A stretch of DNA of 57,694 nt, taken from positions 1 through 57,694 of the forward strand of contig CAYVZO010000001.1 of assembly GCA_964456345.1 (NCBI GenBank), given 5' to 3'. A program made the position numbers and the translations under genes. Positions 13,689 through 28,136 of this stretch are shown in pieces. Source of the stretch: an uncultured archaeon. Its GTDB lineage: Archaea; Aenigmatarchaeota; Aenigmatarchaeia; GW2011-AR5. The notes under the pieces are model-generated. The model saw only the letters and a program-made list of their open reading frames with translations, had not been told where the DNA came from and made no database searches. Every line of letters begins with the position of its first letter. The first letter of the stretch is position 1.

Positions 13689-14555
13689 ATGCAAAAGATG
13701 ATTAATATTGAAAATATTTTAGTGATACAAATGATTGAGAAGGGTGGCTTGTGGAAATTCCTCGTCTTTATACCCATTGCTCTGCTTCTCTTCTCTGTTT
13801 TTGTTATTTTTTCGAATATCTTGGAGAGGGGTTTCATAATAGAAAGGGACGTCGAACTTGCAGGCGGAAAGATGATAACAATCGATATCGGCAACCAGGA
13901 ACCTGACTTGGACGCGATAAAGGATGCGATACCTTATGCGTCTGTACATGTTGCATCAGGGCTTACAAACAGCCTGATAGTCGAGATATCATACGAAGAA
14001 GACGAGGAAAAAGTAATAAACGAGTTGCACAAGTATGTGGACGGGGAGTCAAGCATAAGGACAATCGGGCCTGCTATGAGCGAGGTTTTCTGGGAGCAAA
14101 CGCAGATAGCAATAATAGTAGCTTTCGTGTTCATAGCACTGATAATATTCATCCTGTTCAGGAGCCCTGTACCATGCTCGCTCGTCGTGTTCGCTGCTGC
14201 AACAGACATCATCGCAACCGTAGCCATAATGAGCATTGTCGGCATAAAGCTCTCGCTTCCAGTTCTCGCCGCGCTTCTTATGCTGATTGGCTACTCTGTT
14301 GATACGGACATACTACTGACTTCAGAGGTAATGAAACGCCGCGAGAAAGAGCTTCCTGCGCGGATAAGGACTGCGATGAAGACCGGGCTCACCATGACCA
14401 CAACTACTCTTGCTGCTCTTGTGGCGATATATTTTGTCACAGGATCGTTTGTTCTGGAGCAGATCGCTATTGTTTTGATGATTGGCCTTTCAATTGACAT
14501 TCCTTCAACATGGTTCACCAACGCAGGCCTTCTAAGGCTCTGGGTGAAAGAATGA
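13689..14555 (+). CDS. secF: Protein-export membrane protein SecF
   Basis: C-terminal 6-TM SecD/F domain with IGYSVDTDILLTSEV. The exact start among several Met codons is uncertain. Confidence 0.8.
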   Translation: MQKMINIENILVIQMIEKGGLWKFLVFIPIALLLFSVFVIFSNILERGFIIERDVELAGGKMITIDIGNQEPDLDAIKDAIPYASVHVASGLTNSLIVEISYEEDEEKVINELHKYVDGESSIRTIGPAMSEVFWEQTQIAIIVAFVFIALIIFILFRSPVPCSLVVFAAATDIIATVAIMSIVGIKLSLPVLAALLMLIGYSVDTDILLTSEVMKRREKELPARIRTAMKTGLTMTTTTLAALVAIYFVTGSFVLEQIAIVLMIGLSIDIPSTWFTNAGLLRLWVKE

Positions 14556-16141
14556 GATCCATCAATGTACGTATAGCAATATGGCTGTTCTTTGTAGTCG
14601 TATCAGTCCTTCTTATAGGGCCAAACTTTAATCCAGTAGGGCTTGTTGTCGATTCTGCCAGCAACACGACTGCTATCTCAGCAGGCGACATCATCTATGA
14701 AATAGACGGCAAGATAGCGACTGTAGATGACCTGGAAAAAGATTATTACGGAAGCGTTACCCTGGATACAAATAAAGGGAAAAAAATAATGATGGCCAAC
14801 GGCTCTCTGGGCATAAGTGCTGAGCCGGTAAGTATGACCAATCTTATTTTTGGCCTTGATATAAAAGGCGGTACAAGGGCCATTGTAAAGCCGGACTCTA
14901 CGGAAAACAATACAATAGACAGGATAATCTCCACCCTGCAGACGAGGATAAACGTGTACGGGCTTCGCGACTCAAGCTTCAGGCCGTTGATGTACAAAGA
15001 TCAAGGATACATAGAGATAACAATGGCAGGCGGGACACAGAAGGAGCTTAAAGAGCTTCTCGAGCGCCAGGGAAAGTTCGAGGCTCACATCCCTCTGCGC
15101 ATAGAGCTTGCCAACAATACCGGAACGATAAATCTCGACAAGGAATACAAGATGATTGTTAACGAAAAGCTTTCAATACCTTCTGCTGGTATAGAAGCAG
15201 GTGTCGGTGAGGAATTCACACTTGCAGGCATTCCTTTCATAGTGAACAGCCTAGACGAGGTTGTAAACATAACGTCCATTGTTTATACAGGTGATGATAT
15301 CGTCAGCGTCTTTCTTTCAGGGCAGACTGCTAAGGAAGGCGGGTACTATAGATGGGAGTTTCCTGTACAGATATCCATGCACGGAGCTGAGAAGTTTGCG
15401 TGGATAACGCAAAACGTGCCAAGAAGGCTCGAACACCTGGAATCGAAGATATACCTCTACCTGGACAATAACCTTATTGACAGCCTTAATATAGCAGCCG
15501 GACTAAAAGGTAAGGCAGAGACGAACATTCTGGTAACAGGTGGCTCAGACACCCAAGAAGAAGCTATAGAAGAACGGACACGCCTGCAGTCGATACTTCG
15601 TTCAGGTGCACTGCCTGCGGGCATAGAAGTAGTGCAACTGGAGGACATCTCCCCGAACTTGGGCACCGGGTTCGTCAAAAATGCTATTATAGCCGGGCTT
15701 GCTGCTGTACTCGGGGTCTCAATAGTAGTTTTGTTGAGGTACAGGAACCTGCTCATAGTAGGGCCTATGATCATTGTCTCTCTAAGCGAGATTCTCATAA
15801 TACTCGGCGTGTCCGTTCTTATCAAGTGGACAATAGACCTAGCTGCAATAGCAGGCATAATAGCAGCTGTGGGCACTGGCATAGATTCGCAAATCATAAT
15901 ACTTGACCAGACCCTGCGTAAGGAAGCACGTGAGGAGACGCTTCGCGAACGGCTTTCTCGCGCATTCTTCATAATATTCGGCGCAGGAGGCGTTGTCATC
16001 GCAGCCATGCTGCCTTTGATGACGCTAGGCTTTGGCCTGCTGCGGGGCTTTGCTATAACCACCATGATAGGCGTGCTGGCAGGCATACTGATAACAAGGC
16101 CTGCCTTCGGAGAAATCGTAAGGAGAATCGTCAAAGAATAG
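14552..16141 (+). CDS. secD: Protein-export membrane protein SecD
   Basis: N-terminal TM helix, large periplasmic domain (GLDIKGG) and C-terminal TM bundle with AGIIAAVGTGIDSQIII. The ATG at 14552 overlaps the secF TGA. Confidence 0.8.
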   Translation: MRSINVRIAIWLFFVVVSVLLIGPNFNPVGLVVDSASNTTAISAGDIIYEIDGKIATVDDLEKDYYGSVTLDTNKGKKIMMANGSLGISAEPVSMTNLIFGLDIKGGTRAIVKPDSTENNTIDRIISTLQTRINVYGLRDSSFRPLMYKDQGYIEITMAGGTQKELKELLERQGKFEAHIPLRIELANNTGTINLDKEYKMIVNEKLSIPSAGIEAGVGEEFTLAGIPFIVNSLDEVVNITSIVYTGDDIVSVFLSGQTAKEGGYYRWEFPVQISMHGAEKFAWITQNVPRRLEHLESKIYLYLDNNLIDSLNIAAGLKGKAETNILVTGGSDTQEEAIEERTRLQSILRSGALPAGIEVVQLEDISPNLGTGFVKNAIIAGLAAVLGVSIVVLLRYRNLLIVGPMIIVSLSEILIILGVSVLIKWTIDLAAIAGIIAAVGTGIDSQIIILDQTLRKEAREETLRERLSRAFFIIFGAGGVVIAAMLPLMTLGFGLLRGFAITTMIGVLAGILITRPAFGEIVRRIVKE

Positions 16142-16180
16142 GCTTAAGTAAATTTACGTGATTTTTTCTTTGGTGTAGAT

Positions 16181-17656
16181 ATGTCAGGTGTAACTGGTGC
16201 TTACTCTTTGCTGAATCCTAACGTTGTAGTTGACTATACCTTCAAACCACTTTCTTTCATACAGCACAGGGGGGAAATAGGTGCAGGTATTACTGTTGGT
16301 AAAAATGGGGGGTTCTCTCCTCCGCATAAGGAGCTTGGCAACAGGGTTTATATAATTTTCCAGCGCTGTTTAGACCAGCTTAAAATGATTGAACCGAATG
16401 TTGCTGTTGCTCACACCAAGTTTGGGAAAAAGGACCAGCTGCAGCCTAATACGTATGACACTGGCGGAAGGTATAAAACAGCATTTGCAAAAGACGGCAA
16501 TGTAATCGGTATGAGCTCTTACGAAACTGGCGCTTTCTTGCACGATTGCCTAGAAGAGACCCAAGATATCTATCATGCAGCGGAAAAATTTATGAAAGAG
16601 CTGTACGGAAGAGGTGCTTATAGCATTGTCTGGTCCATAGTCGATAAGAAAAACGGTGACATGAAATTAGTCGGCATTCGGGACCCTTTCGGAATCAACC
16701 CTTTCTGCAAAGGCGAAAAAGATGGTGCCTATTTATTATGTTCCGAGACCATTGGCATCAGGTCAGTTGGCGCAAGATGCAGTGGTTTTGTTGAGCCTGG
16801 AGGTGTGGTTGTTTTTTATGAAGATAAAGAATTGCCAACCGAGGTTGTTGTAGAAGCCCCTAGGCATTACCATGATTTTTTCGAATACCTGTATACTGCA
16901 AGCCCGTTTTCAGAGCTGGACGGTGCTGGAAGAAGCAATTTTGAGATAAGGTATGATATAGGCAGGGATCTGGCCTACAAGTTTCCTGTAGATGCTGACA
17001 TTTATGCCGGTTCTCCTGATTCTGGAATTCCGGTTTCCCTTGGCTATATAAGAGGTATAAATGAACAGATCCTGGAAAGCCTGCAGAAGGATGGGAAAAG
17101 AGTAACTATGGATGACTTGAAAGAGTTCCTAATGCCAATAGGAAAGAACCGCGGTGCTGTAAGAACATTCTTTGCTGACCCCAGTGTAAGGGACATGGAA
17201 TCTGAATTGAAATTTGTTTTTAATGAAAGCATAATCACCCCTGGCTTGAGGATAATAAATCCGGATGAGGTGTGTTTTAACGAAGTAGCGGGAAGGAAAG
17301 TTGTTGTCATCGATGACAGCCTTGTCAAAGGCACTGTTTATGACAGCACAATCAGTAAAATAGAATATTGTGGCGGCGTATTTAGTGGGCTTGTCCTTTC
17401 AAGTCCTGCCTTGGTGGCGAATTCCATAAGAGATTTTGATGATACGAAGCAGAGGCTTCTTCACGGTCATTGGGACAAAACAAATGAAGAAAAAATGAGG
17501 ATAGCCAGCGAGAAACTTGGTTATCCGGTTTATTATTCTGAAATACCTGACGTTGTCAGGCAGATAGGGATTGAAGACCTGGATTTAGGAACAGTAAGTG
17601 GATGGTTCCCTCTAAAGAAAGAGTACCTGCCAGACGGGTATAGGTCCCTTTTATAG
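16181..17656 (+). CDS. Amidophosphoribosyltransferase (PurF)-like protein, divergent, lacking the N-terminal Cys nucleophile
   Basis: IQHRGEIGAGI, IRDPFGINPF, CSETIG, FFEYLYTASP, GSPDSGIPVSLGY, VRTFFADP and the PRTase loop VVVIDDSLVKGT parallel PurF motifs. The N-terminus is MSGVTG rather than MCGI. Confidence 0.6.
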   Translation: MSGVTGAYSLLNPNVVVDYTFKPLSFIQHRGEIGAGITVGKNGGFSPPHKELGNRVYIIFQRCLDQLKMIEPNVAVAHTKFGKKDQLQPNTYDTGGRYKTAFAKDGNVIGMSSYETGAFLHDCLEETQDIYHAAEKFMKELYGRGAYSIVWSIVDKKNGDMKLVGIRDPFGINPFCKGEKDGAYLLCSETIGIRSVGARCSGFVEPGGVVVFYEDKELPTEVVVEAPRHYHDFFEYLYTASPFSELDGAGRSNFEIRYDIGRDLAYKFPVDADIYAGSPDSGIPVSLGYIRGINEQILESLQKDGKRVTMDDLKEFLMPIGKNRGAVRTFFADPSVRDMESELKFVFNESIITPGLRIINPDEVCFNEVAGRKVVVIDDSLVKGTVYDSTISKIEYCGGVFSGLVLSSPALVANSIRDFDDTKQRLLHGHWDKTNEEKMRIASEKLGYPVYYSEIPDVVRQIGIEDLDLGTVSGWFPLKKEYLPDGYRSLL

Positions 17657-17657
17657 C

Positions 17658-17891
17658 CTATTTCTTCAGAGAGAATAACCCGTACGTTAAGAATAGTACT
17701 CCTGCTATGGTCTTTATCGAAAGATAGAGCCAGTTTATAACAAGCATTTCTATGGCCAGCATTGGCGTTGTCTCCACGACAACAAGTATGCTTATAACGG
17801 ACTCTATTATGAATATGAGACCGAGAAGCAGAACACCGGACGAGAGTATCCTCTGCGTACTTATCGTACGTTTATACTTTTTCTTTGCCAT
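17658..17891 (-). CDS. Small membrane protein (2 TM), hypothetical
   Basis: 77 aa with two hydrophobic helices. It starts immediately after the stop of the NAC gene. Confidence 0.4.
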   Translation of the reverse strand: MAKKKYKRTISTQRILSSGVLLLGLIFIIESVISILVVVETTPMLAIEMLVINWLYLSIKTIAGVLFLTYGLFSLKK

Positions 17892-18224
17892 TCATTTCCC
17901 CTCAAGTTCCATTATGGCTTTTGCCAGGTCGTTGTCAAGCTCTTCCAACTTTTTGACAACAGTTGTCCTGTCTTTGCCTGTCTTTTCCATGACCATTTTT
18001 ATATCGTCCTCACTTACCTGCGATGATTCGCTTACCTCACCGCTTATCTGGTAAACTTCCTTGCCCATCATGTCTGTTATCATGACCTCTGGCTTGGAGA
18101 TTATTACGTTTTTGTCATGGCATTTTATTATTACTTCCTCTGCTTCGAGCTCACGCACGTTCATGTTGAGCTTCTTCATCATTTCCTGCACTTTCTTCGG
18201 GCTCATCTTACCTGGCAGCATCAT
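17892..18224 (-). CDS. nac: Nascent polypeptide-associated complex protein (archaeal NAC)
   Basis: NAC domain (VRELEAEEVIIKCHDKNVIISKPEVMI...YQISGE) followed by a UBA-like tail (SEDDIKMVMEKTGKDRTTVVKKLEE). Confidence 0.8.
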   Translation of the reverse strand: MMLPGKMSPKKVQEMMKKLNMNVRELEAEEVIIKCHDKNVIISKPEVMITDMMGKEVYQISGEVSESSQVSEDDIKMVMEKTGKDRTTVVKKLEELDNDLAKAIMELEGK

Positions 18225-18266
18225 AAAAACATCTATTCTTATTTATCACGTGCTTATTATTTAAAT

Positions 18267-19457
18267 ATGTTTGAGTTTGCCTTGCTTCTTTTGCTCGGCA
18301 TCCTTGCTGGAGTGGTAATGGGGCTTATACCAGGCATCCACCCGAACCTTATAGTATTGACAGTGCCCTTTCTGCTCGTCCTGGATATAGCGTCGTTATA
18401 CCTCCTGGTTTTCATGGTTGCCATGGCAGTAACCAACAGCATAGTGGATTTCATACCATCTATATTTCTGGGCGCGCCTGATTCAGGCAACGAGCTGTCC
18501 ATACTGCCTGGGCACAGGATGCTTCTTTCTGGTCAGGGCTACCAGGCAGTGAAACTCACTGTTATAGGCGGTGTGGGCTCTGTCATTGTCTGTGTGCTGC
18601 TGCTGCCTTTTTTGGTTTTTATTGTGCCTTTTCTCTTCAGAATCCTTGGTAATTATATCTTCGTCCTGCTGGCAGGAATTGTCCTTGCTATGGTCCTGAG
18701 CGAGCCAGGGAAGAAAAAGATTGTCGCGATAGCCTGTTTTTCCCTTGCAGGCGTGATCGGCCTTCTTGCAGCCAGGCTTCCTATAGACAGTAATCTTGTG
18801 CTTTTTCCTATATTTTCGGGTTTCTTCGGTCTCAGCCTGCTTGTGCTTCAGCTGAAGAACAATGTCGTGGTGCCTAAACAGAAGAAAAGCGAGGGCTTCA
18901 TTTCTTCTCGGCTCATAAACCGCTCGATATTGTCAGGCTCGTTCGGAGGCGTTGTCTCCGGCCTTCTTCCTGGCGTAGGCTCAAGCGAGATTGCGTCTCT
19001 CGTCAGCATGAACAGGAATGACAGGTCTTTCCTAATCTCGATAGGTGCATTGACAACCGCGAATATAATAATTTCCCTTCTTGCTTTGTGGTTAATAGGC
19101 AAAACAAGAGCAGGCGTGGCTGTGGCAATAAACCAGCTTATGGCTATTGGAACGAACGAATTCTTGGTTATAATATTCGCCTCTCTGGCTGCCTGCGGGG
19201 TAGCTGCTGTTGCGACTTTGATACTGGCAAAAGTAATACTCAACAAGATTCAGGGAATAAATTACAGCACTATTAGTTTGTTCGTGATTGTCATGCTGGT
19301 CTCTCTGATTGCCATATTTACCGGATTCTATGGTCTCGTCCTTGCGTTAACGTGCTGCTCCTTGGGTATATTCACGAATCTCGCAGGAGTAAAGCGCGGA
19401 AACCTCATGGGTGTATTAATATTGCCGACAATATTGTTTTACATCGGGTTCTTGTAG
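18267..19457 (+). CDS. TctA-family (DUF112) tripartite tricarboxylate-transporter-like permease
   Basis: Polytopic protein with GLIPGIHPN and GLLPGVGSSE loops characteristic of DUF112. The ATG at 18267 avoids overlap with the NAC gene. Confidence 0.65.
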   Translation: MFEFALLLLLGILAGVVMGLIPGIHPNLIVLTVPFLLVLDIASLYLLVFMVAMAVTNSIVDFIPSIFLGAPDSGNELSILPGHRMLLSGQGYQAVKLTVIGGVGSVIVCVLLLPFLVFIVPFLFRILGNYIFVLLAGIVLAMVLSEPGKKKIVAIACFSLAGVIGLLAARLPIDSNLVLFPIFSGFFGLSLLVLQLKNNVVVPKQKKSEGFISSRLINRSILSGSFGGVVSGLLPGVGSSEIASLVSMNRNDRSFLISIGALTTANIIISLLALWLIGKTRAGVAVAINQLMAIGTNEFLVIIFASLAACGVAAVATLILAKVILNKIQGINYSTISLFVIVMLVSLIAIFTGFYGLVLALTCCSLGIFTNLAGVKRGNLMGVLILPTILFYIGFL

Positions 19458-19523
19458 TTAATAGTTAGATTTAAAAGGTTTGTAGCTGATTTTATGATAT
19501 TTTACACACAAGGAGGTTATTGG

Positions 19524-19700
19524 ATGGCAGAAATGCTGGTAGTAAAAAGCAAGGTTAAGGAATATGCAAAAAAGAAGAAGATGAGCTTTGGCGGAGATGC
19601 TGCTGATGCTCTGAGCAGGGAAGTTGCAGCTTTGGTTGATAAGGCAATAGCCAGGGCCAAGGCAAACAAAAGAGCAACAGTAAAGGGAAGAGATATCTGA
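19524..19700 (+). CDS. Small histone-fold-like (DUF1931-type) protein
   Basis: MAEMLVVKSKVKEYAKK...FGGDAADALSREVAALVDKAIARAKANKRATVKGRDI. AGGAGG lies 7 nt upstream of the ATG at 19524. Confidence 0.55.
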   Translation: MAEMLVVKSKVKEYAKKKKMSFGGDAADALSREVAALVDKAIARAKANKRATVKGRDI

Positions 19701-19791
19701 TAAGCTTTCATAAAGGATTAAGAAAAATTCCCTGCTTTTTCTTTTATTTTTGCTGTAACATTTATACTCCGGTCTAATTCTTAAAGAAACT

Positions 19792-19998
19792 TTACCCAAT
19801 ATACGAGTCATCTGGCAGAACAAGGTCTTCTGGTCTTGTCACGCTGTCGATATCAGGCTCTTCTGGTTCTTCTGTAATTGTTTTTCTTACCCTCCTACCA
19901 ACAGGTCCTAGATATCTGCTCGTAACCTTGTCGCCTTTTCTTATTGACTCGTAATAGTACTTTCTGCCATTGATGGTTTTGATGTGTTTGTTAGGCAT
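19792..19998 (-). CDS. Hypothetical small basic protein with acidic tail
   Basis: 68 aa. INGRKYYYESIRKGDKVTSRYLG, then an acidic, Pro-rich C-terminus. No family assignment possible. Confidence 0.4.
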   Translation of the reverse strand: MPNKHIKTINGRKYYYESIRKGDKVTSRYLGPVGRRVRKTITEEPEEPDIDSVTRPEDLVLPDDSYIG

Positions 19999-20017
19999 GG
20001 AATCACTCTAATTCGTT

Positions 20018-20028
20018 GTGAAGTTCAC
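20018..20028. promoter_or_regulatory. Perfect 11-bp palindrome GTGAAGTTCAC upstream of the small ORF 19792..19998
   Basis: Read directly from the sequence. It has the same GTGAA half-site as the 47-kb iteron array. Confidence 0.35.
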
Positions 20029-20177
20029 TATTTAAGGTTTTTGTCATTCGGGTGGATATTTCGGAAATGTCATGTTCATCCCCATGTTCATAATGCCAAT
20101 TCACACCCCTTCATTTCCACTGCAAATGTATTCATATAACAGCGTTATTGATATGAACAGCTAGAAATAGTCTAGGA

Positions 20178-22868
20178 TTACTTCTTTTTTTTCATTTTTG
20201 TTCCTGATGAACCACTGCAGCTTATCAGAAGTTCACCTCCGCATTCACATACTCCCTGGAGCGGTATCCTCCTGTAGGTCTTGTTGCATTTTTTGCATAT
20301 AAAACCTTCCCAGTCATCAACTACCTGCTCCTTTTTCTGTGGCCTGTATTCTATTTCTATGTCATGCTTCATCTTCCTTTTGTTTCCGTTCATGATGTCA
20401 AATATGCTGGTCTGTCTGCCATTCCCAAGAAGTTCGCTTTTCGTTATTCCTAGTGAAGCCAGGATTCTTTCTATTGGCGGGAATAGCTGGTTATGTATGT
20501 AATAATCAGAATCTATCTGGAGCCCTTTCTTTTTGACGTAATTCGGGTCTTCAGCTCTTTTAGAGAGCATCTGGTTGCCGCGGACTATGACAAAGTCTAT
20601 GCGCTCGCCTACGATGGGTTTGTTTTGGGGCTCCCGCTCTGCGATTTTCTTGGCAAGCTCTATGTGCGGAAGCGTTCCTGCATAGTTTTCAATGCTCTTT
20701 GTTATGCCTTTTGTAATCGTAAGCTTTTCTGCAGGTATCTCGTTGTTCCTCAGCTTTTCCAGCACCTCCCTTACCTTGTTTATGGCCTTTTCGATGTCAC
20801 CCTCTTTCAAAACGATTTCAAGTATCTCTATCATGGTTTCTGATACAAGGGGACACCAGTCCCTTCTCACTGTCTCTATGCCCTTCATTTCTATGCTGTC
20901 TTTCCACTCGTCATCCACTTTCTCGAACTTCCAGCCAGCATAGCGCTTTTTTGTCAGTATCAGGAAGGTGCGGTATATCTTCTCGAATTCAAGCTCGAGC
21001 TTGCCTGGCAATTTTTGTGTCACAAAATCTGATATTTTCTTGCCAAGTTCTTCTGCATCATCTAATTTTGTTATATTGGTCTTTAGAAATATGGAATCAG
21101 TATCACCATAAACAACTGTGACAGGGAAGTTGTCTTCTATGAGTTTTTTCGTCTTCACGATATTATCCCTTCCAAAAGCTGTTATGGTGTTTGCCACATC
21201 TATCATGTATAAGCGGGCTCGTATGTAGCCTGTATAGCCGTAGAATGAGTTGGACATATCCTTTAGCGCAAGCTGCCTGGCATTCAGTATGCGCCTGGCT
21301 TCGCCAGACTCCTTCTTCATCTCCTTCTTTATGCGCCCTCTTGCCACCATAAGCTCCCTTAGTATCCGTGGCATCACGCCTTCCCTTGTTTCCTTGTCAA
21401 CAAACAAGGCACCTGAAGGTGATTTTATAGCTGCTTTTTTTTCACCGTCCAAAAGAAGAGTGTCTGGCGATACGTTATAGGTACGCATTATGCTCGGATA
21501 AAGGCTCTTGAAGTCCAGGACAAGTATGCACCCCTCAGAGTGCAGTCCTTTTATCGGCTCAAGGACTGTAGCGCCCTTCAGCCCTTTTTTCGCCCTTTCC
21601 CTTGCGCGCTTTGACAGGACTGCACTGTTCGGCTTCGACGGCATTACAAAATTGCTTTCCTTGAATTCATGCAGTATTTTTATTTCCACCCTGGAAGACT
21701 GTCCTCCGAATGTATCCTGGAGCAGGAGACCCGAGACCTTAGAAAGCTCGAAGAATTTGTCAAGAAGCCTCACCTTTAGGAGCAGGTCCAGGTTCAGCTG
21801 GGCATCCTTTCTCGAATATTCAATAAATCTTTTCGGGTCTTTTTTCCAAAGCTCAGGCATTTCACCATAGGTGACGTCAAGCTTCTCCTCGTTTAGCAGC
21901 TCTTTGGCTATGTTCTTAAGTGTGTATCTGTGGAATTTAACCCAGGGGTCTCTCTTCAGTATCTGGTAAGGATCGACAACGACACGTCCCTGGACAATAC
22001 AGTCCTGCGTCATGCCGTATGTTCTCGTAAAGACATTTTTCTCACAGCGCCCGAAATTCTGCTGCAGCTTGTGGTGTTTTAGCCTTTCGAGTAGATAGGG
22101 GAAGTCGAAGTTGTTGCAGTTGTAGCCTGTTACGATATCAGGGTCGAAACTGTCTACTATCCTGAGGAATTCCTCAAGCATCTCCTTCTCGCTCGGGAAC
22201 CCCCTTGCATCTTTCCCCCTAAACGGCTTCGCGAGTATGACCAGGCTTTTCATCCCCCTGAATTCAGGCTTGAAAGCAAGGGACACCATTATGATCTGGT
22301 CCTTCTTTGCGTCAAGCGGCTTGTTCACGTCGTGAGGTATGCACTCTATGTCAAAGGAGAGATATTTGAGGTCGAGGTTTTCTTTCCTCTGGATTGCTTT
22401 TAGCTTCCTTACGTGGTAAGAGGGGACTTTCGACGCCTTTGTAAAGGCCTTCTCGCCCTCTGCCTCAACCCAGTCCATGCCATGCAGACCATGATCAACC
22501 ATGAACCTGTACTTGAACAGTATGTCCGCCTCATAAGAATCCTCGATCACGCCGTCAGCCAGCAGCTGGTCCTTTACCTTGGGCACGTTCTGCGGATTCG
22601 TGAGCGTAAGTTTGTAGAGCTTGGCCGGCTTTTCGTTGTACCCGAGCGGTATGAGCTTCTCAACCTCCTCTATTTTTATTATTTCTTTCATGTCTTCCAG
22701 GCTGGACAGCGCGAGTCTGTTTTTCTCGTTAAGCTTTACATAGAAATAGGGCATAAAGTCATCGTAGATGGCGCATACGGATTTGCCGTTCTCTGTCTTC
22801 CCAAACAGCCTAAGAACCGGCTTGCTGCCGTTTAGAAAGTAATCACTATCCAATAACTGAAAGAGCAT
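20178..22868 (-). CDS. polB: Family B DNA polymerase with about 65-aa C-terminal Cys-cluster (zinc-ribbon-like) extension
   Basis: Exo I FDIEC, Exo II NCNNFDFPYL, Exo III YSRKDAQL, motif A DFKSLYPSIM, motif B KDMSNSFYGYTGY, motif C VYGDTDS. C-terminal CKKCNKTYRRIPLQGVCECGG. Confidence 0.95.
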   Translation of the reverse strand: MLFQLLDSDYFLNGSKPVLRLFGKTENGKSVCAIYDDFMPYFYVKLNEKNRLALSSLEDMKEIIKIEEVEKLIPLGYNEKPAKLYKLTLTNPQNVPKVKDQLLADGVIEDSYEADILFKYRFMVDHGLHGMDWVEAEGEKAFTKASKVPSYHVRKLKAIQRKENLDLKYLSFDIECIPHDVNKPLDAKKDQIIMVSLAFKPEFRGMKSLVILAKPFRGKDARGFPSEKEMLEEFLRIVDSFDPDIVTGYNCNNFDFPYLLERLKHHKLQQNFGRCEKNVFTRTYGMTQDCIVQGRVVVDPYQILKRDPWVKFHRYTLKNIAKELLNEEKLDVTYGEMPELWKKDPKRFIEYSRKDAQLNLDLLLKVRLLDKFFELSKVSGLLLQDTFGGQSSRVEIKILHEFKESNFVMPSKPNSAVLSKRARERAKKGLKGATVLEPIKGLHSEGCILVLDFKSLYPSIMRTYNVSPDTLLLDGEKKAAIKSPSGALFVDKETREGVMPRILRELMVARGRIKKEMKKESGEARRILNARQLALKDMSNSFYGYTGYIRARLYMIDVANTITAFGRDNIVKTKKLIEDNFPVTVVYGDTDSIFLKTNITKLDDAEELGKKISDFVTQKLPGKLELEFEKIYRTFLILTKKRYAGWKFEKVDDEWKDSIEMKGIETVRRDWCPLVSETMIEILEIVLKEGDIEKAINKVREVLEKLRNNEIPAEKLTITKGITKSIENYAGTLPHIELAKKIAEREPQNKPIVGERIDFVIVRGNQMLSKRAEDPNYVKKKGLQIDSDYYIHNQLFPPIERILASLGITKSELLGNGRQTSIFDIMNGNKRKMKHDIEIEYRPQKKEQVVDDWEGFICKKCNKTYRRIPLQGVCECGGELLISCSGSSGTKMKKKK

Positions 22869-22915
22869 GCAATAGAATTTCGCGTAAACACTTTTATTGT
22901 TTTAGAGTTCTCGAA

Positions 22916-24034
22916 TTATATTTTCGACCTCATCAAGTCCACCTGGGCAGCCTCGCGGGTTTCTAAATCTATTACGACAGGCCTGAATTTTGCAAGAGGC
23001 GAGCCCGAATTTACGAGTGTGACGGACTTGTAGTTCATTATTTGCGGCTCGTGCGTGTGCCCAAAATGGACTATGTCAGGCACCTCTTCCAGAACAAGAT
23101 GGTCTTCGGCCATGACAGCCCTTGTTTTTCCGAGATGCCTCTTCTTCAGCATGCTGATGTCCATTTCATGTATAACAAGAATTTTTACGCCGTTTACCTC
23201 AACCATGGAAGGATTGCTGAGCGGTATTATTTCCCTGCTGTCAAAATTCATCGGCAGCTGAGGATACTCGTCGCCATCGACGTTGCCAGGTATCACGAAA
23301 ACCTTTCTGCCGTAGCAGTGCTTGGCAACCATATCATCCAAACTTTTTACGTCTGCTGTATCGCCTGCTATAAAAAGATATTTTATGTCCTGGTTTTCGA
23401 ACCAGGTGAAGAATTTCTCTATGTCAGCAGACGGGCTCTCATCCAGGTGAAGGTCCGAGATAAAGCAGACTTTCCCGTGCCCCTTGACAGGAGTCCTCAA
23501 CGGAATGTCCGGGTAGATGATTTCCTTGCCGAAAAGTATTTTACCCCCTGAAACCGCCCTTACAGCAACAACGTCGTCAAGCTCGAGGTCGTTCTTTTCC
23601 TCAAAAAGTATTGGTATTGTAGCTGTCTGGTCTTCAAGGTCGACGGCTACTCCTTTCTCTTTCTCCTTTACGTCCTTGACTATTCCTATAACATAAACCT
23701 CGTTGCGAAAGCTGTCCAGCTTGTTCAGTGAAATGAAATTCTTCTGGAGCCTCTTCATGAGTATATTCTTTGTTTTCTCGTACCTTGACATGTAGAACCG
23801 TACGAAATCGTCTGTAGAGGCCTCCTTGAGCTTCTCTGTAATGTTCTTTATCACTCTTACCTTTTCTGTTTTGGCGTCTCTCTGCACAAAATCCTGCGGA
23901 GTCAGAACGAGCTTTTCCTGCACGGGTTTGAGTTCTTCCTTCTGGTTTTCCAAGAAAGACAGAGCCTCTGGCGTAAGCAGCATGCCCTTGTCCAGATAAC
24001 TCTTAACAATATTCTCCTTTTCCATAAATCTCAC
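22916..24034 (-). CDS. DNA polymerase II (PolD) small subunit DP1-like / B-subunit family protein, short form
   Basis: N-terminal IVKSYLDKGMLLTPEALSFL and an OB segment VYVIGIVKDV...LEDQTATIPILF. Phosphoesterase motifs are ISDLHLD, IAGDTAD, PGNVDG, VIHE and GHTHE. Only 372 aa. Confidence 0.8.
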   Translation of the reverse strand: MRFMEKENIVKSYLDKGMLLTPEALSFLENQKEELKPVQEKLVLTPQDFVQRDAKTEKVRVIKNITEKLKEASTDDFVRFYMSRYEKTKNILMKRLQKNFISLNKLDSFRNEVYVIGIVKDVKEKEKGVAVDLEDQTATIPILFEEKNDLELDDVVAVRAVSGGKILFGKEIIYPDIPLRTPVKGHGKVCFISDLHLDESPSADIEKFFTWFENQDIKYLFIAGDTADVKSLDDMVAKHCYGRKVFVIPGNVDGDEYPQLPMNFDSREIIPLSNPSMVEVNGVKILVIHEMDISMLKKRHLGKTRAVMAEDHLVLEEVPDIVHFGHTHEPQIMNYKSVTLVNSGSPLAKFRPVVIDLETREAAQVDLMRSKI

Positions 24035-24040
24035 AAGAAA

Positions 24041-25255
24041 TCACTCAAAACGCTCGTCAAGGAAGGTCTTGACCTTTTCGAGAACAGAATCGTTTATGGC
24101 GAGCGATATTTCCCGTGTCCTGCCATAACGGCCCTTTGATATCACCTTTGCGTTTATTATACCCAGCATATCAAGCTCGCTTATAAGGTCGCTTACCCTC
24201 CTCTGTGTCAGGCATTTCAGAGCGTTGTCCTGGCATATCCTTTTGTAGGTATTGAAAACATCTCCTGTAAGGAGCCTCCTGTCAACCCATGTGCCTCCGT
24301 TGTTTTCGTGACCATTGCCAAGCCGTATTATGGCGTTCAGGACTGCTTGTGAATGTTTTGGCTGCGTCTTTATGGTTTCAGATACCCTATCCAGGTCGAT
24401 TTTCTCTTCAGCTGCATCAACGTGCCTTTCTTCTATATCCTGGTCGCCAAGGCGTTCGCTTATTTCTCCCGCCACCCTCAACAGGTCCAGGGCGCGCCTT
24501 GCATCACCATGCTCTTGCGCAGCAAGCGCTGCACACTTGTTTATCACATGGTCTTTTATCTCACAATTGAACCCCTGCTTTATCCTCTGAGACAAGATGT
24601 CCCTTAGCTGAACAGCGTCATAAGGCCTGAAAATCGCCTCTTCCTCACTAAGCGAGGACTTTATCCTCTGGTCCAGCGTATCGCGGAACGACAAATCATT
24701 TGTAATGCCTATGATTGTCACTGTGGAGTTCTTTAGGTCGGTATTAATCCGCGTGAGATTGTAAAGGAACTCATCTCCTATTTTCCTGAAAAGGTTGTCT
24801 ATCTCGTCCAGAACGATGATAAGTGCCTGTTTCTTCTCGTCTATAGTATCAAAGAATTTTCTGTAAAGAACATCGGTTGGCAGTCCTGTATCAGGCACGG
24901 TCTCGCCAAGCTCTTTCAGCATCTGTGCCAGCAAACGGTATTCTGTATCCGCCACCTTCTTCATCTTGCAGTTTATGTATATTGATGTTATGTTTCTGTT
25001 CTTTGTTATCTGTTTTAGCTGACTCAACACGAACTTCACTACAACTGTCTTGCCTGTCCCGCATGTACCATATATGAAAAGGTTGTTAACACTATATCCA
25101 CGAAGCGCAGGCGCGAGGACAGCGCTTATCTGTTTTATCTCCTCTTCCCTGTGCAGTATCTTTTCAGGAGTGAAATTAGCAGTAAGTGCGTTTTTGTTCT
25201 TAAAAATAGTGGGTTTTTCTAAATAAGTAGAAAATATATTATCCACAAACCACAC
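24041..25255 (-). CDS. cdc6: Orc1/Cdc6 replication initiator
   Basis: Walker A GTCGTGKT, Walker B IIVLDEID, GDARRALDLLR and a C-terminal winged helix. GTG start. Confidence 0.95.
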   Translation of the reverse strand: MWFVDNIFSTYLEKPTIFKNKNALTANFTPEKILHREEEIKQISAVLAPALRGYSVNNLFIYGTCGTGKTVVVKFVLSQLKQITKNRNITSIYINCKMKKVADTEYRLLAQMLKELGETVPDTGLPTDVLYRKFFDTIDEKKQALIIVLDEIDNLFRKIGDEFLYNLTRINTDLKNSTVTIIGITNDLSFRDTLDQRIKSSLSEEEAIFRPYDAVQLRDILSQRIKQGFNCEIKDHVINKCAALAAQEHGDARRALDLLRVAGEISERLGDQDIEERHVDAAEEKIDLDRVSETIKTQPKHSQAVLNAIIRLGNGHENNGGTWVDRRLLTGDVFNTYKRICQDNALKCLTQRRVSDLISELDMLGIINAKVISKGRYGRTREISLAINDSVLEKVKTFLDERFE

Positions 25256-25465
25256 CCCAAACTAACCTTAATTTCTTTTAGAAAGTATATAAATATATCT
25301 CTATCGGAAACTAAGGTTATTAACCTATATTTTTTGAAAACAAAAACCCCCCTATATTTCTTATAGAGACCTTGTGTTGTTGTTTTTCTTTCTATAACGA
25401 TGTTATAAGAAGCTATGGTTGTTGATTTTGACAAAGTTTTAAATTCTCCATAAGAAAACAGCCCC
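25256..25465. promoter_or_regulatory. orc1/cdc6 upstream region (promoter; classical position for an oriC, but short)
   Basis: 210 bp, AT-rich. It contains TAACCTTA / TAAGGTTA inverted copies and the 13-bp palindrome AGGTTATTAACCT. No ORB-like long repeats seen. Confidence 0.3.
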
Positions 25466-25867
25466 TCAGACCAGGGAAAATTTTATTGTGTAATAGATAA
25501 GCCCGTTTTTGCCATCTTCATGCTGCTGCCTGAAAACAGGAGCAACACGCGAACCTTTTTTTATCTTTTCAGTGTCTCCCACAACAGGGGCTGTGATGTT
25601 AGGCCCTTCATCTAGTTTTATAACAGCCAGGACATAGGGCGCAAGGCGTTCGAAACCAGCAGGCGGGGCGTGAATTTTGGTATAGCTTATGACCTCGCCT
25701 GTGCCTGCTAGCCTGTGTTCGACAAGGTTGCCCCTGCGTCTGCACTCAGGGCAGAAACTTCTTGGTGGAAAAAACACGCTACCGCAGGTTACACAACGAT
25801 TGCCGAAAAGGCTGTATTTACTCTTCTTCAATCGCCAAAATAAAGGCACGCTGGATTTATGAGGCAT
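25466..25867 (-). CDS. DUF35 OB-fold/zinc-ribbon protein (thiolase-HMGCS scaffold)
   Basis: CVTCGSVFFPPRSFCPEC zinc ribbon followed by an OB-fold. Directly downstream of the thiolase gene. Confidence 0.85.
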   Translation of the reverse strand: MPHKSSVPLFWRLKKSKYSLFGNRCVTCGSVFFPPRSFCPECRRRGNLVEHRLAGTGEVISYTKIHAPPAGFERLAPYVLAVIKLDEGPNITAPVVGDTEKIKKGSRVAPVFRQQHEDGKNGLIYYTIKFSLV

Positions 25868-27036
25868 TATTTCAACTCCCTGCTTAGTATGCTTACTACT
25901 GCTGTAGCTCCTGACCCACCAACGTTCAGGGCAAGACCTGTTTTTGCGTTTTTTACTTGGTTTATAGAACTTCCGCGAAGCTGCTTCACTATATCGACAA
26001 TCTGTCTTATCCCTGTTGCGCCGACTGGGTGGCCAATCGCTTTCAGACCACCCGTCGTGTTCGTCGGTATTATACCACCAAGCATAACATTGCCGTCTTC
26101 CACGAACCTGCCGCCCATTCCTGGCTCACAGAAGCCAAGCCCCTCCAGGGAAAGTATCTCATTTATGGTGAAGCAATCATGAACCTCTGCCACGTCTATA
26201 TCTTCTGGCCGCAGGCCAGCTGTTTCATAAGCTTTTTTTGCCGCTATCTTTGTCGCAAGAATCTCTGTTAAGGAGGCCCTGTCGTGTAGTGCAAGCGCAT
26301 CTGATGCCTGCTCTGACGACAACACCCAGACAGGATCCTTGAAACCCTCAGCCATTTTTTCTGATACAAGGACCAAAGACGCAGCACCGTCTGTTATAGG
26401 CGAACAGTCAAGAAGATGCAGCGGCTCAGCTATCATTGACGAAGAAAGCACGTCTTTTATTGTTATTTCTGACCTGTATTGGGCAAGTTCGTTGTTCAGA
26501 GCATTTTTGTGGTTTATTACAGCAACCTTAGCCATCTGCTCCGGCGTTGTGCCGTACTGTTCCATGTGAGCGCGGGCCATGAGTGCGTATAAGCCAGGAA
26601 AAGTCATGCCGATTGCTGCTTCCCATTCCTGGTCGCCTGCGCCTATAAGAGAGGTAGTGACCTCACCGGTCTTCAGGTCCGTCATCTTCTCAGCTCCAGC
26701 AGCCATCACAATGTCGTATTTGCCAGAAGCAATAGCAAGGCAGGCCTGCCTGAACGCTAGTGCGCCTGAAGCACACGCAGCCTCGCACCTGGTTGCAGCT
26801 ATAGGGTTGAGCCCTGCTTGGTCAACAGCCAGCGCTGCCAGGTGTTCCTGTCCCACGAAGCGGCCAGAAGACATGTTTCCTACGTACAGCGACTGAATTT
26901 CAGTACCGTGAAGCTTCGCATCTTCAAGAGCAGTCTTGCCAGCTTCTACTGACAAGTCGCGAAGCGATTTGTTCCAGTGCTCTCCAAATTTCGTCTGCGC
27001 AACACCAACAACAGCAATGCCCATCATTTTTATCAC
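25867..27036 (-). CDS. Acetyl-CoA C-acetyltransferase (archaeal thiolase)
   Basis: Thiolase fold with [13 protein letters not shown] active-site Cys region and C-terminal GHPVGATG / NVGGSGAT. Confidence 0.9.
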
Positions 27037-28070
27037 ATCTTCAGCTTTTTCCTCAACCTGACGTAATTACCGTAATCGACATAGCTTTTTTTCCTTATAT
27101 AGTAATCAGTAGTTGGGGCCAGAGCCCTTCTTTTCACGAGATTATCCGTGACTGTCAACGCAAAGGAGTCAGAGCCAGCACCTGAGCCAAACGACGTCAT
27201 GAGTATGCGCTCACCCGGCTTCGCGATATCGAGAGTTGAGCAAAGCCCTATTAAAGAAGACGCGGAGTACGTGTTTCCAATCTTCTTTACCACAAGACCA
27301 GGCATCACCTTCTCTTTTTCAAACCCGAGTTTTTTTGCTGCTGACAAAGGGAACTTTCCGTTCGGCATGTGGAAAACCGCGTAATCAAAATCTTTAGGCT
27401 CTGCGTTTACCTTCTTCAAAAGGCCCTTTGTCGCTGATATTACATGATGGAAATACGCCGGCTCGCCTGTGAATCTCGCACCGTGCTTCGGATAGGTCTC
27501 GCCCTCGCGCCGCCAGAAATCAGGAGTATCAGTGGTGTAAGAATACATATCATCTATTGTTGCAAGCGGGTCCTCGCCTATTATGAAGGAAGCTGATCCT
27601 GCAGCAGCTGTATATTCAAGAGCGTCGCCAGGCATGCCCTGCGCTGTGTCAGAGCCTATGGCAAGTCCGCTTTTTACCATGCCTGATTTTACAAGGCCCA
27701 TGCAGCACTGGATAGCTGCTGTACCTGCCTTGCACGCGAATTCGAAATCAGCAACAAGCACCTCAGGCACGATTCCAAGCGCTTCTGCCACGACTGTTCC
27801 GGAAGGCTTTACAGCGTAGGGATGACTCTCTGAGCCTATGAAAAGGGCACCCACATCTTTCGGGTCCATGCCAGCACGCAAAAACGCATTTTTTGCGGAT
27901 TCAACGCTCATCGTTATCGTGTCCTCATCCATGTCAGGCACGGTTTTCTCCTCAACCATCAGGGAATTCTTTATGTTCTCCGCATCCTGCCCCCATATGC
28001 GTGCAATCTCCTCCACCTTTATCCTGTAAGCAGGCAGGTAGGCTCCGTAACCAACTATACCGTGACTCAT
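27033..28070 (-). CDS. Hydroxymethylglutaryl-CoA synthase
   Basis: 345 aa. [13 protein letters not shown] start, [14 protein letters not shown] catalytic Cys region and FHMPNGKFP. First gene of the HMGCS-thiolase-DUF35 operon. Confidence 0.9.
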
Positions 28071-28136
28071 ATAACCACGAAGATTACCAGAAACATTTTT
28101 AAATAGATACCACTCAGAAAGTTTTTAAACCAAGAT

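Follow-up and report, generated by a model that had tools for sequence, protein, structure and literature searches.

The group B6 of family-B DNA polymerases (PolBs), and the group B6-aenigma1 within it, were defined by Kazlauskas, Krupovic, Guglielmini, Forterre and Venclovas (2020, NAR 48:10142; PMC7544198). In that paper's account of the group, B6-aenigma1 polymerases carry one zinc motif similar to that of DP2, the large subunit of the archaeal polymerase PolD; most Aenigmarchaeota lack DP2, their small PolD subunit DP1 is inactivated, and the B6-aenigma1 PolB was proposed to have replaced DP2 (PMC7544198). The corresponding part of a 2025 study in Nat Ecol Evol (PMC12680538) names these proteins 'Aenigmatarchaeota PolB with degenerate DP2CTD' (CTD, C-terminal domain), describes Aenigmatarchaeota and Baldrarchaeia as the sole archaeal lineages without DP2 that keep DP1, and reassigns the group B6-aenigma2 to Baldrarchaeia, with contamination in Aenigmatarchaeota metagenome-assembled genomes (MAGs). 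It also reports, based on AlphaFold3 models and yeast two-hybrid assays, an interaction of DP1 with PolB-DP2CTD in both lineages and none with PolBs without this domain. Here we analyse a PolB gene of this kind on a 57,694-nucleotide (nt) stretch of DNA from an uncultured archaeon of the DPANN phylum Aenigmatarchaeota (contig CAYVZO010000001.1, positions 1 to 57,694; hereafter the window). The gene (20178..22868, minus strand) encodes 896 amino acids (aa) and ends in a putative zinc ribbon. We consider it very probable that the product is the replicative polymerase of this archaeon, a B6-aenigma1 PolB whose tail, of the type of the Zn-III module of DP2, docks a DP1-like subunit encoded by the adjacent gene.

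The window protein shows each of the B6-aenigma1 features tested, namely a PolB core, a single DP2-like motif, relatives in Aenigmatarchaeota and an inactivated DP1 homologue. No substantive difference from B6-aenigma1 was found: both have the same phylum, an active PolB core related to Pol delta, one four-cysteine (C4) motif nearest to DP2 Zn-III and an inactivated DP1, and the window copy is one more orthologue. The Pol delta-like sequence and structure scores given below are similarity scores rather than a tree, and as such are consistent with the placement of B6 beside the Pol delta-like clade. A tie to the exemplar accessions OIN85950, GCA_002789635 and KHO47493, sought in the supplements and by cluster look-up, was not found.

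The Baldrarchaeia PolB3-DP2CTD (formerly B6-aenigma2) likewise joins a PolB to a CTD derived from DP2, and its lineage keeps DP1 without having DP2, as described in PMC12680538. The Baldrarchaeia domain is full length, with two metal motifs and a eukaryote-like structure, whereas the window tail has a single motif and lacks the helical bundle (PMC12680538 for Baldrarchaeia). The architecture and the DP1 interaction are already published (2020, 2025) and are not novel. Three features presented here may be absent from the passages of PMC7544198 and PMC12680538 that treat these lineages: an internal box similar to PCNA-interacting-protein (PIP) motifs, the near-universal gene order cdc6 - DP1-like - PolB, and a stepwise decay of the active site in DP1.

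The polymerase core and its C-terminal extension

The Pfam domains DNA_pol_B_exo1 (aa 110-320, E=2.3e-34) and DNA_pol_B (aa 387-805, E=7e-115) were identified in the window PolB, and both the exonuclease motifs FDIE, NxxxFD (NNFD) and YxxxD (YSRKD) and the polymerase motifs DxxSLYPS, KxxxNSxYG (NSFYG) and YGDTDS are intact in the translation. Judged by these motifs, the core is complete and proofreading-competent. The AlphaFold2 (AF2) model of the full-length protein has a mean predicted local distance difference test score (pLDDT) of 89.3. In a Foldseek search with this model, human and yeast Pol delta rank at the top, followed by Thermococcales PolBs; the best structural match of the core is Pol delta 9ekb_A (E=2.5e-69, template modelling (TM) score 0.81). 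In the sequence search, Pol delta (6s1m_A, E=2.6e-110) and a Thermococcales PolB (1wns_A, E=6.6e-115) score nearly equally.

Relatives of the window PolB were collected as the best 120 database matches (NCBI, JGI, ENA and Logan assemblies), which are 52-69% identical to it; the closest sequence is 68-69% identical. All taxon-named relatives among these 120 belong to Aenigmarchaeota/Aenigmatarchaeota or to the MAG archaeon GW2011_AR5. A scan of GTDB, with one genome per species and a 9-sequence tail alignment, yielded 251 tail-encoding loci, and the synteny and motif counts given below refer to the best 80 of them, all distinct. These 80 loci come mostly from Aenigmatarchaeota MAGs; the rest are labelled as untyped or uncultured archaeon, and three as Nanoarchaeota or Nanobdellati. 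Many of the orthologous genes encode 1300-1800 aa, with at least one intein in the polymerase domain (Pfam Intein_splicing and LAGLIDADG_3; for example, relatives P0018, P0021, P0027-P0029, P0034 and P0042, and loci L001, L009, L018, L020, L024 and L077). The window PolB has no intein.

The interval 20178-20375 on the minus strand holds the last 65 codons and the stop codon of the open reading frame (ORF). A previous reading of this region, made from the sequence only, had proposed that about 65 residues are added to a complete PolB core, and the comparison with other polymerases bears this out: DNA_pol_B ends at aa 805, Thermococcales PolBs (773-775 aa) end no more than ~10 residues from the position that corresponds to aa 826-837, and the window PolB continues for ~60-70 residues beyond that end. 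Read from the reverse complement, the C-terminus is ...GNGRQTSIFDIM NGNKRKMKHDIEIEYRPQKKEQVVDDWEGF ICKKCNKTYRRIPLQGVCECGGELLISCSGSSGTKMKKKK, followed by the stop codon; the codons of Cys858 and Cys861, read by hand, are at 20295-20297 and 20286-20288, respectively. The tail string ICKKCNKTYRRIPLQGVCECGGELLISCSG, with the spacing CxxC-x12-CxC, is present in the translation.

The extension comprises, in order, a PIP-like box, a basic linker, the DP2-type Zn-III ribbon and a short variable basic end. Residue conservation was counted in a full-length alignment of 73 PolB orthologues. The PIP-like box GRQTSIFDIM (aa 817-826; 20391..20420, minus strand) aligns with QVGLGAWL at the extreme C-terminus of the 9N/Thermococcales PolB and is internal in the window protein. 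G817 and Q819 are invariant (73/73), D824 is kept in 67/73, and the pattern Q-x-x-[LI]-x-x-[aromatic/aliphatic]2 suggests that the box could bind PCNA. The linker (aa 827-852; 20313..20390, minus strand) varies in length, with indels among orthologues at aa 842-845, and retains a semi-conserved KRxxKHxIxxxY; its pLDDT is 55-78 across two AF2 models, the full-length one and one of the tail, and 58-65 in the tail model.

The ribbon itself (aa 853-890; 20199..20312, minus strand) can be written as WEgF-C858-KK-C861-nKtYRRiPLqGv-C874-e-C876-GGeLLis..GS.G. The four cysteines C858, C861, C874 and C876 are invariant (73/73), P869 is kept in 72 and L870 in 68 of the 73 orthologues, and G872, G877, G878 and G886 are near-invariant. 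Basic residues are also frequently retained beside the first two cysteines and in the loop that follows (R867, 63/73; R866, 53/73; K863, 59/73; K860, 58/73). Among the best 120 relatives, CxxC..CxC is found at the same place in 115 and CxxC..CxxC in three, the other two being truncated sequences; the C4 motif is present in 80/80 GTDB loci. The extension is thus neither absent from close orthologues nor non-conserved, and the tail pattern is not due to chance.

Two parts of the previously proposed motif do not hold among orthologues. The spacing CxxC-x12-CxC was confirmed, but the fifth cysteine added to it (x7-C; C884) is Cys in just 7/73 sequences and usually Tyr, and therefore the metal site is C4. 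The poly-Lys tail is present here, as the last six residues KMKKKK before the stop codon (20178..20198, minus strand), but per-column counts show that it is not conserved; this end is variable among orthologues, though mostly basic. A role for either the fifth cysteine or the poly-Lys end was rejected.

Several comparisons connect the ribbon to DP2. The NCBIfam DP2 models TIGR00354 (E=1.6e-5) and PRK04023 (E=2.9e-5) match aa 856-891 of the PolB, and the TIGR00354 match falls on model positions 1014-1050 of 1096, in the C-terminal region of DP2. A profile built from 43 tails and compared with all sequences of the Protein Data Bank (PDB) retrieves DP2 first, from T. kodakarensis (6knb_B, E=1.3e-6) and P. 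abyssi (6hms_B/6t8h_B, E=1.7e-5), and the region aligned in these matches is the Zn-III finger (eeFvCkkCkksYRRmPLqGvCeCGGellisy). The AF2 tail model, made from the last 105 residues with the 43-tail alignment, is an all-beta ribbon with pLDDT >90 over the final 45 residues, and the full-length model agrees with it; the suggestion of a zinc-ribbon-like element is supported, since the predicted tail is an ordered ribbon with four cysteines, preceded by a low-confidence linker. The top three PDB matches of the tail model in Foldseek are the PolD DP2 chains 8ppt_B, 9f29_B and 9f2a_B, with a root-mean-square deviation (rmsd) of 1.7-2.1 A and 43-45% identity over 33-35 residues at probability 1.0. 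Sequence models, PDB profile and fold comparison all give DP2, in agreement with the proposed likeness to the DP1-docking module of DP2. By sequence and predicted fold, the ribbon is a homologue of the DP2 Zn-III module, the equivalent of eukaryotic CysB, and the bound metal is most likely zinc, with one Zn2+ held by C858, C861, C874 and C876.

The ribbon and Zn-III of DP2 (P. abyssi 6T8H/8PPT, T. kodakarensis 6KNB) share the signature F-C-x-K-C...[YF]RRxPLxGxC-x(1-2)-CGG, with the last two cysteines spaced as CxC in most PolB tails and as CxxC in DP2. The host proteins are different: DP2 is a double-psi beta-barrel polymerase with Zn-I, Zn-II and clamp domains, whereas the host in the window is a family-B polymerase. 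The window tail has neither the flanking helices alpha1' and alpha3' of DP2 nor its clamp-1 bundle; the last predicted helix of the tail is a short one at the PIP-like box (aa 822-826, tail residues 31-35), and the DP1 partner is truncated and without the catalytic His, unlike PolD DP1. The protein is not DP2 itself; the DP2 models match just aa 856-891, and the remainder is PolB.

The eukaryotic polymerases Pol alpha, delta, epsilon and zeta follow the same logic, in which a PolB docks a dead, DP1-derived B subunit via a Cys-rich C-terminal module. Their CTDs have two Cys4 motifs, CysA and CysB, located at the ends of a bundle of two or three helices, and CysB is an iron-sulphur (Fe-S) site in delta and zeta. 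In contrast, the window tail has just the CysB/Zn-III equivalent: it contains no second Cys motif besides the single CxxC-x12-CxC. A two-motif CTD of the eukaryotic type was rejected, given the one Cys4 motif, the lack of helices and a non-significant match of the tail profile to the Pol epsilon CTD (5vbn_B, E=0.74). The resemblance to eukaryotic CTDs noted in the sequence-only reading therefore extends to the docking logic and does not extend to the complete helical domain.

The DP1-like protein encoded next to PolB

Canonical DP1 proteins are ~480-720 aa long and contain five motifs of the calcineurin/Mre11 type, including GNH(D/E). The ORF located 47 nt upstream of the PolB gene on the same strand (22916..24034, minus strand) encodes a short DP1-like protein of 372 aa, counted from a GTG codon; the true start is probably an ATG three codons inside. 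It has the N-terminal region of DP1 together with an OB fold and a reduced phosphodiesterase (PDE) domain. The NCBIfam model of the PolD small subunit, NF003118, matches with E=1.6e-44 and a score of 152.7, compared with an equivalog cut-off of 445, and the P. abyssi and T. kodakarensis DP1 structures in PDB are matched with E=4e-15 by the single sequence and E=3e-25 by the profile, covering the OB fold and the PDE domain. These matches identify the protein as a DP1 homologue, as had been suggested for the adjacent gene. It is not a canonical PolD small subunit, given its 372 aa, its altered third motif and its score below the cut-off.

In the profile alignment, motif III reads GNVD in the window copy, GNHD in T. 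kodakarensis DP1 and GNAD in PDB entry 6HMF. The latter is the exonuclease-dead P. abyssi DP1 mutant H451A, and H451 is the catalytic proton donor (PMC6355029). Because the H451A entry reads GNAD at this position, the missing His of motif III corresponds to H451 of P. abyssi. The conservation of the DP1-like protein was studied in 63 sequences, the window copy and 62 Aenigmatarchaeota orthologues, which form a near clade of 30 and a far clade of 33. The motif-III His is kept in none of the 62 orthologues (0/62), and in the window copy it is replaced by Val. The window copy keeps the other four motifs, DLH, GDxxD, H and GHTH (motif region aa 194-328), and represents the least-decayed end of a gradient, with just the proton-donor His missing. 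In the near clade, the positions of those four motifs are kept in just 17-26/30 sequences, and in the far clade all five motifs are lost and the length is down to 290-340 aa, with the PolB ribbon persisting.

A different set of positions, all non-catalytic, is 85-100% conserved across all 63 sequences: S102, G117, E134, D135, T137, P175-D176-x-P178, R299, P319-D320 and N334-Y335-K336. Conservation of non-catalytic positions together with decay of the catalytic ones is expected of a subunit that is kept for structure or interaction, and the DP1-like protein is probably a non-catalytic scaffold, similar to the eukaryotic B subunit. In the window sub-clade every Mre11-type metal ligand is kept and just the proton-donor His is gone. 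The window copy could therefore have retained metal binding and some phosphoesterase activity, weak or repurposed, although we regard this as unlikely. If so, the protein would represent a living intermediate on the way from a DP1 that actively proofreads to a dead B subunit of the eukaryotic type.

The gene of the replication initiator Orc1/Cdc6 (24041..25255, minus strand; TIGR02928, E=4.3e-121; Pfam Cdc6_C and Cdc6_lid) is directly upstream of the DP1-like gene. The order cdc6 - DP1-like - PolB recurs in three orthologous contigs, and the adjacency is conserved among the GTDB loci. A DP1-like gene was found in 64/80 of these loci, directly upstream of PolB on the same strand in 44 and elsewhere within 8 kb in 20, and cdc6 adjoins it in 60 of these 64. 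In 15/80 loci the contigs are too short to judge the presence of a DP1-like gene. The sole GTDB locus with ample flanks and neither a DP1-like gene nor cdc6 within 8 kb is L082 (CAZVWU010000002.1).

Proposed docking of the DP1-like protein and competing explanations

In PolD, the KxRRxP loop of Zn-III (R1131, R1132) enters an acidic groove where the OB and PDE domains of DP1 meet, and a Zn-III peptide of 20 aa suffices to bind DP1 with nanomolar affinity (PMC6355029). We propose that the window ribbon, which would descend from the Zn-III module of DP2 and would bind one Zn2+ via its four cysteines, offers its K..YRRxPL loop to the DP1-like protein, at the acidic groove that separates the OB domain from the PDE domain, and in this way tethers this protein to PolB. 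Proofreading would be performed by the exonuclease domain of PolB itself, with the DP1-like protein serving as a scaffold, and the outcome would be a two-subunit polymerase similar to Pol delta or Pol alpha that acts in place of PolD in a lineage without DP2. Through its internal PIP-like box, this C-terminal region could additionally contact PCNA. From the sequence comparisons and the analogy with PolD, the ribbon most likely docks the neighbouring DP1-like protein; the loop-in-groove geometry of this particular pair is inferred from the PolD complex.

The domain anatomy, the homology to DP2 Zn-III, the conservation, the synteny and the loss of the DP1 active site come from the present analysis, and the binding of DP1, seen by yeast two-hybrid and AlphaFold3 with Aenigmatarchaeota proteins, and the lineage's lack of DP2 come from the literature. 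Several points weigh against the proposed docking. The absence of DP2 is a lineage-level statement from the literature, and the 57.7-kb window shows just no ORF longer than 896 aa. The Foldseek E-value is weak, ~0.04 for the 35-residue match, because the match is short. No helical bundle is predicted in the tail by either AF2 model; in PolD and eukaryotes the bundle adds to the DP1 interface, and therefore DP1 binding would rest on the ribbon alone. The domain of Aenigmatarchaeota is called 'degenerate' in the relevant part of PMC12680538, being shorter and with a different predicted structure. Finally, Zn-III of PolD touches DNA as well (PMC6355029), and the ribbon may accordingly have roles beyond docking.

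This last point leads to the competing explanation that survives best, namely that the ribbon mainly contacts DNA or recruits PriL, RPA or PCNA, and that the DP1-like gene is adjacent as part of a shared replication operon. In PolD, Zn-III and the basic residues R1122, K1125, K1129 and K1145 line the nascent duplex (PMC6355029), and the window tail frequently retains basic residues near its first Cys pair, K860 and K863; an interaction of the DP2 CTD with PriL in Heimdallarchaeia was reported from yeast two-hybrid assays in the part of PMC12680538 concerned. However, the best-conserved non-Cys residues of the tail belong to the RRxPL loop, the part that docks DP1 in PolD. The tail and the DP1-like gene co-occur phylum-wide, including in members whose DP1-like protein has no enzymatic motif left, a pattern that is hard to explain if this protein is not kept as a partner, and the yeast two-hybrid results for PolBs with and without the CTD, cited above from PMC12680538, point the same way. 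Roles in binding DNA or other factors are, moreover, compatible with docking rather than alternatives to it. We consider it distinctly improbable that such contacts, and not docking of the DP1-like protein, are the main function of the ribbon.

The tail could also be a decaying relic of an old recombination between PolB and DP2, a small structural zinc knuckle without a partner. It is much shorter than DP2 or the Baldrarchaeia CTD, has no helical bundle and bears the 'degenerate' label of PMC12680538, and both its linker and its extreme C-terminus vary in sequence and length. On the other hand, the four cysteines are invariant, P869 and the glycines G872, G877, G878 and G886 are nearly so although the orthologues are 52-69% identical overall, and all 80 GTDB loci retain the ribbon. 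A relic under no selection would not survive at such conservation, and we give this explanation very little credence. The remaining possibility, an assembly or gene-calling artefact that fused a separate zinc-ribbon gene in frame, has no observation in its favour and is effectively refuted by the same continuous ORF architecture in 118/120 relatives from independent assemblies, in the GTDB loci and in three complete chromosomes.

Gene neighbourhood and implications

The neighbourhood of the PolB gene (window ~14500-28100) is conserved more widely in distant orthologous contigs (loci L001, L003 and L005). Upstream of cdc6 it includes genes for HMG-CoA synthase, thiolase and a DUF35-type OB protein, and downstream of PolB an ORF of 67-68 aa, a TctA-family membrane protein, NAC and SecD/SecF. 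In the window, two 68-aa ORFs without a Pfam match lie just downstream of PolB, at 19792-19998 on the minus strand and at 19494-19700 on the plus strand; 67-aa genes occupy similar positions in L001 and L003, a likeness by position alone. An AT-rich intergenic stretch of ~200 bp (25256-25460) lies upstream of orc1/cdc6 and contains weak, imperfect repeats, both inverted and direct, such as 25263-25282 paired with 25300-25319 (20 nt, 80% complementary). This region could be a replication origin with origin recognition boxes (ORB) or simply a promoter; no origin signal was seen near it in the GC skew at 4-kb resolution. Rfam matched no RNA family in the window.

The pair encoded in the window is compact, intein-free and operon-encoded (896 aa and 372 aa), which makes it of practical value for biochemical or structural studies of minimal docking by a zinc ribbon only. 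As proposed here, the system would be the clearest archaeal analogue of the build of eukaryotic replicative polymerases, in which a PolB holds a dead, DP1-derived B subunit through a PolD-derived zinc module; the publications of 2020 and 2025 already recognise this importance. It would show that the swap from DP2 to PolB postulated for eukaryogenesis can occur, and has occurred, inside Archaea.

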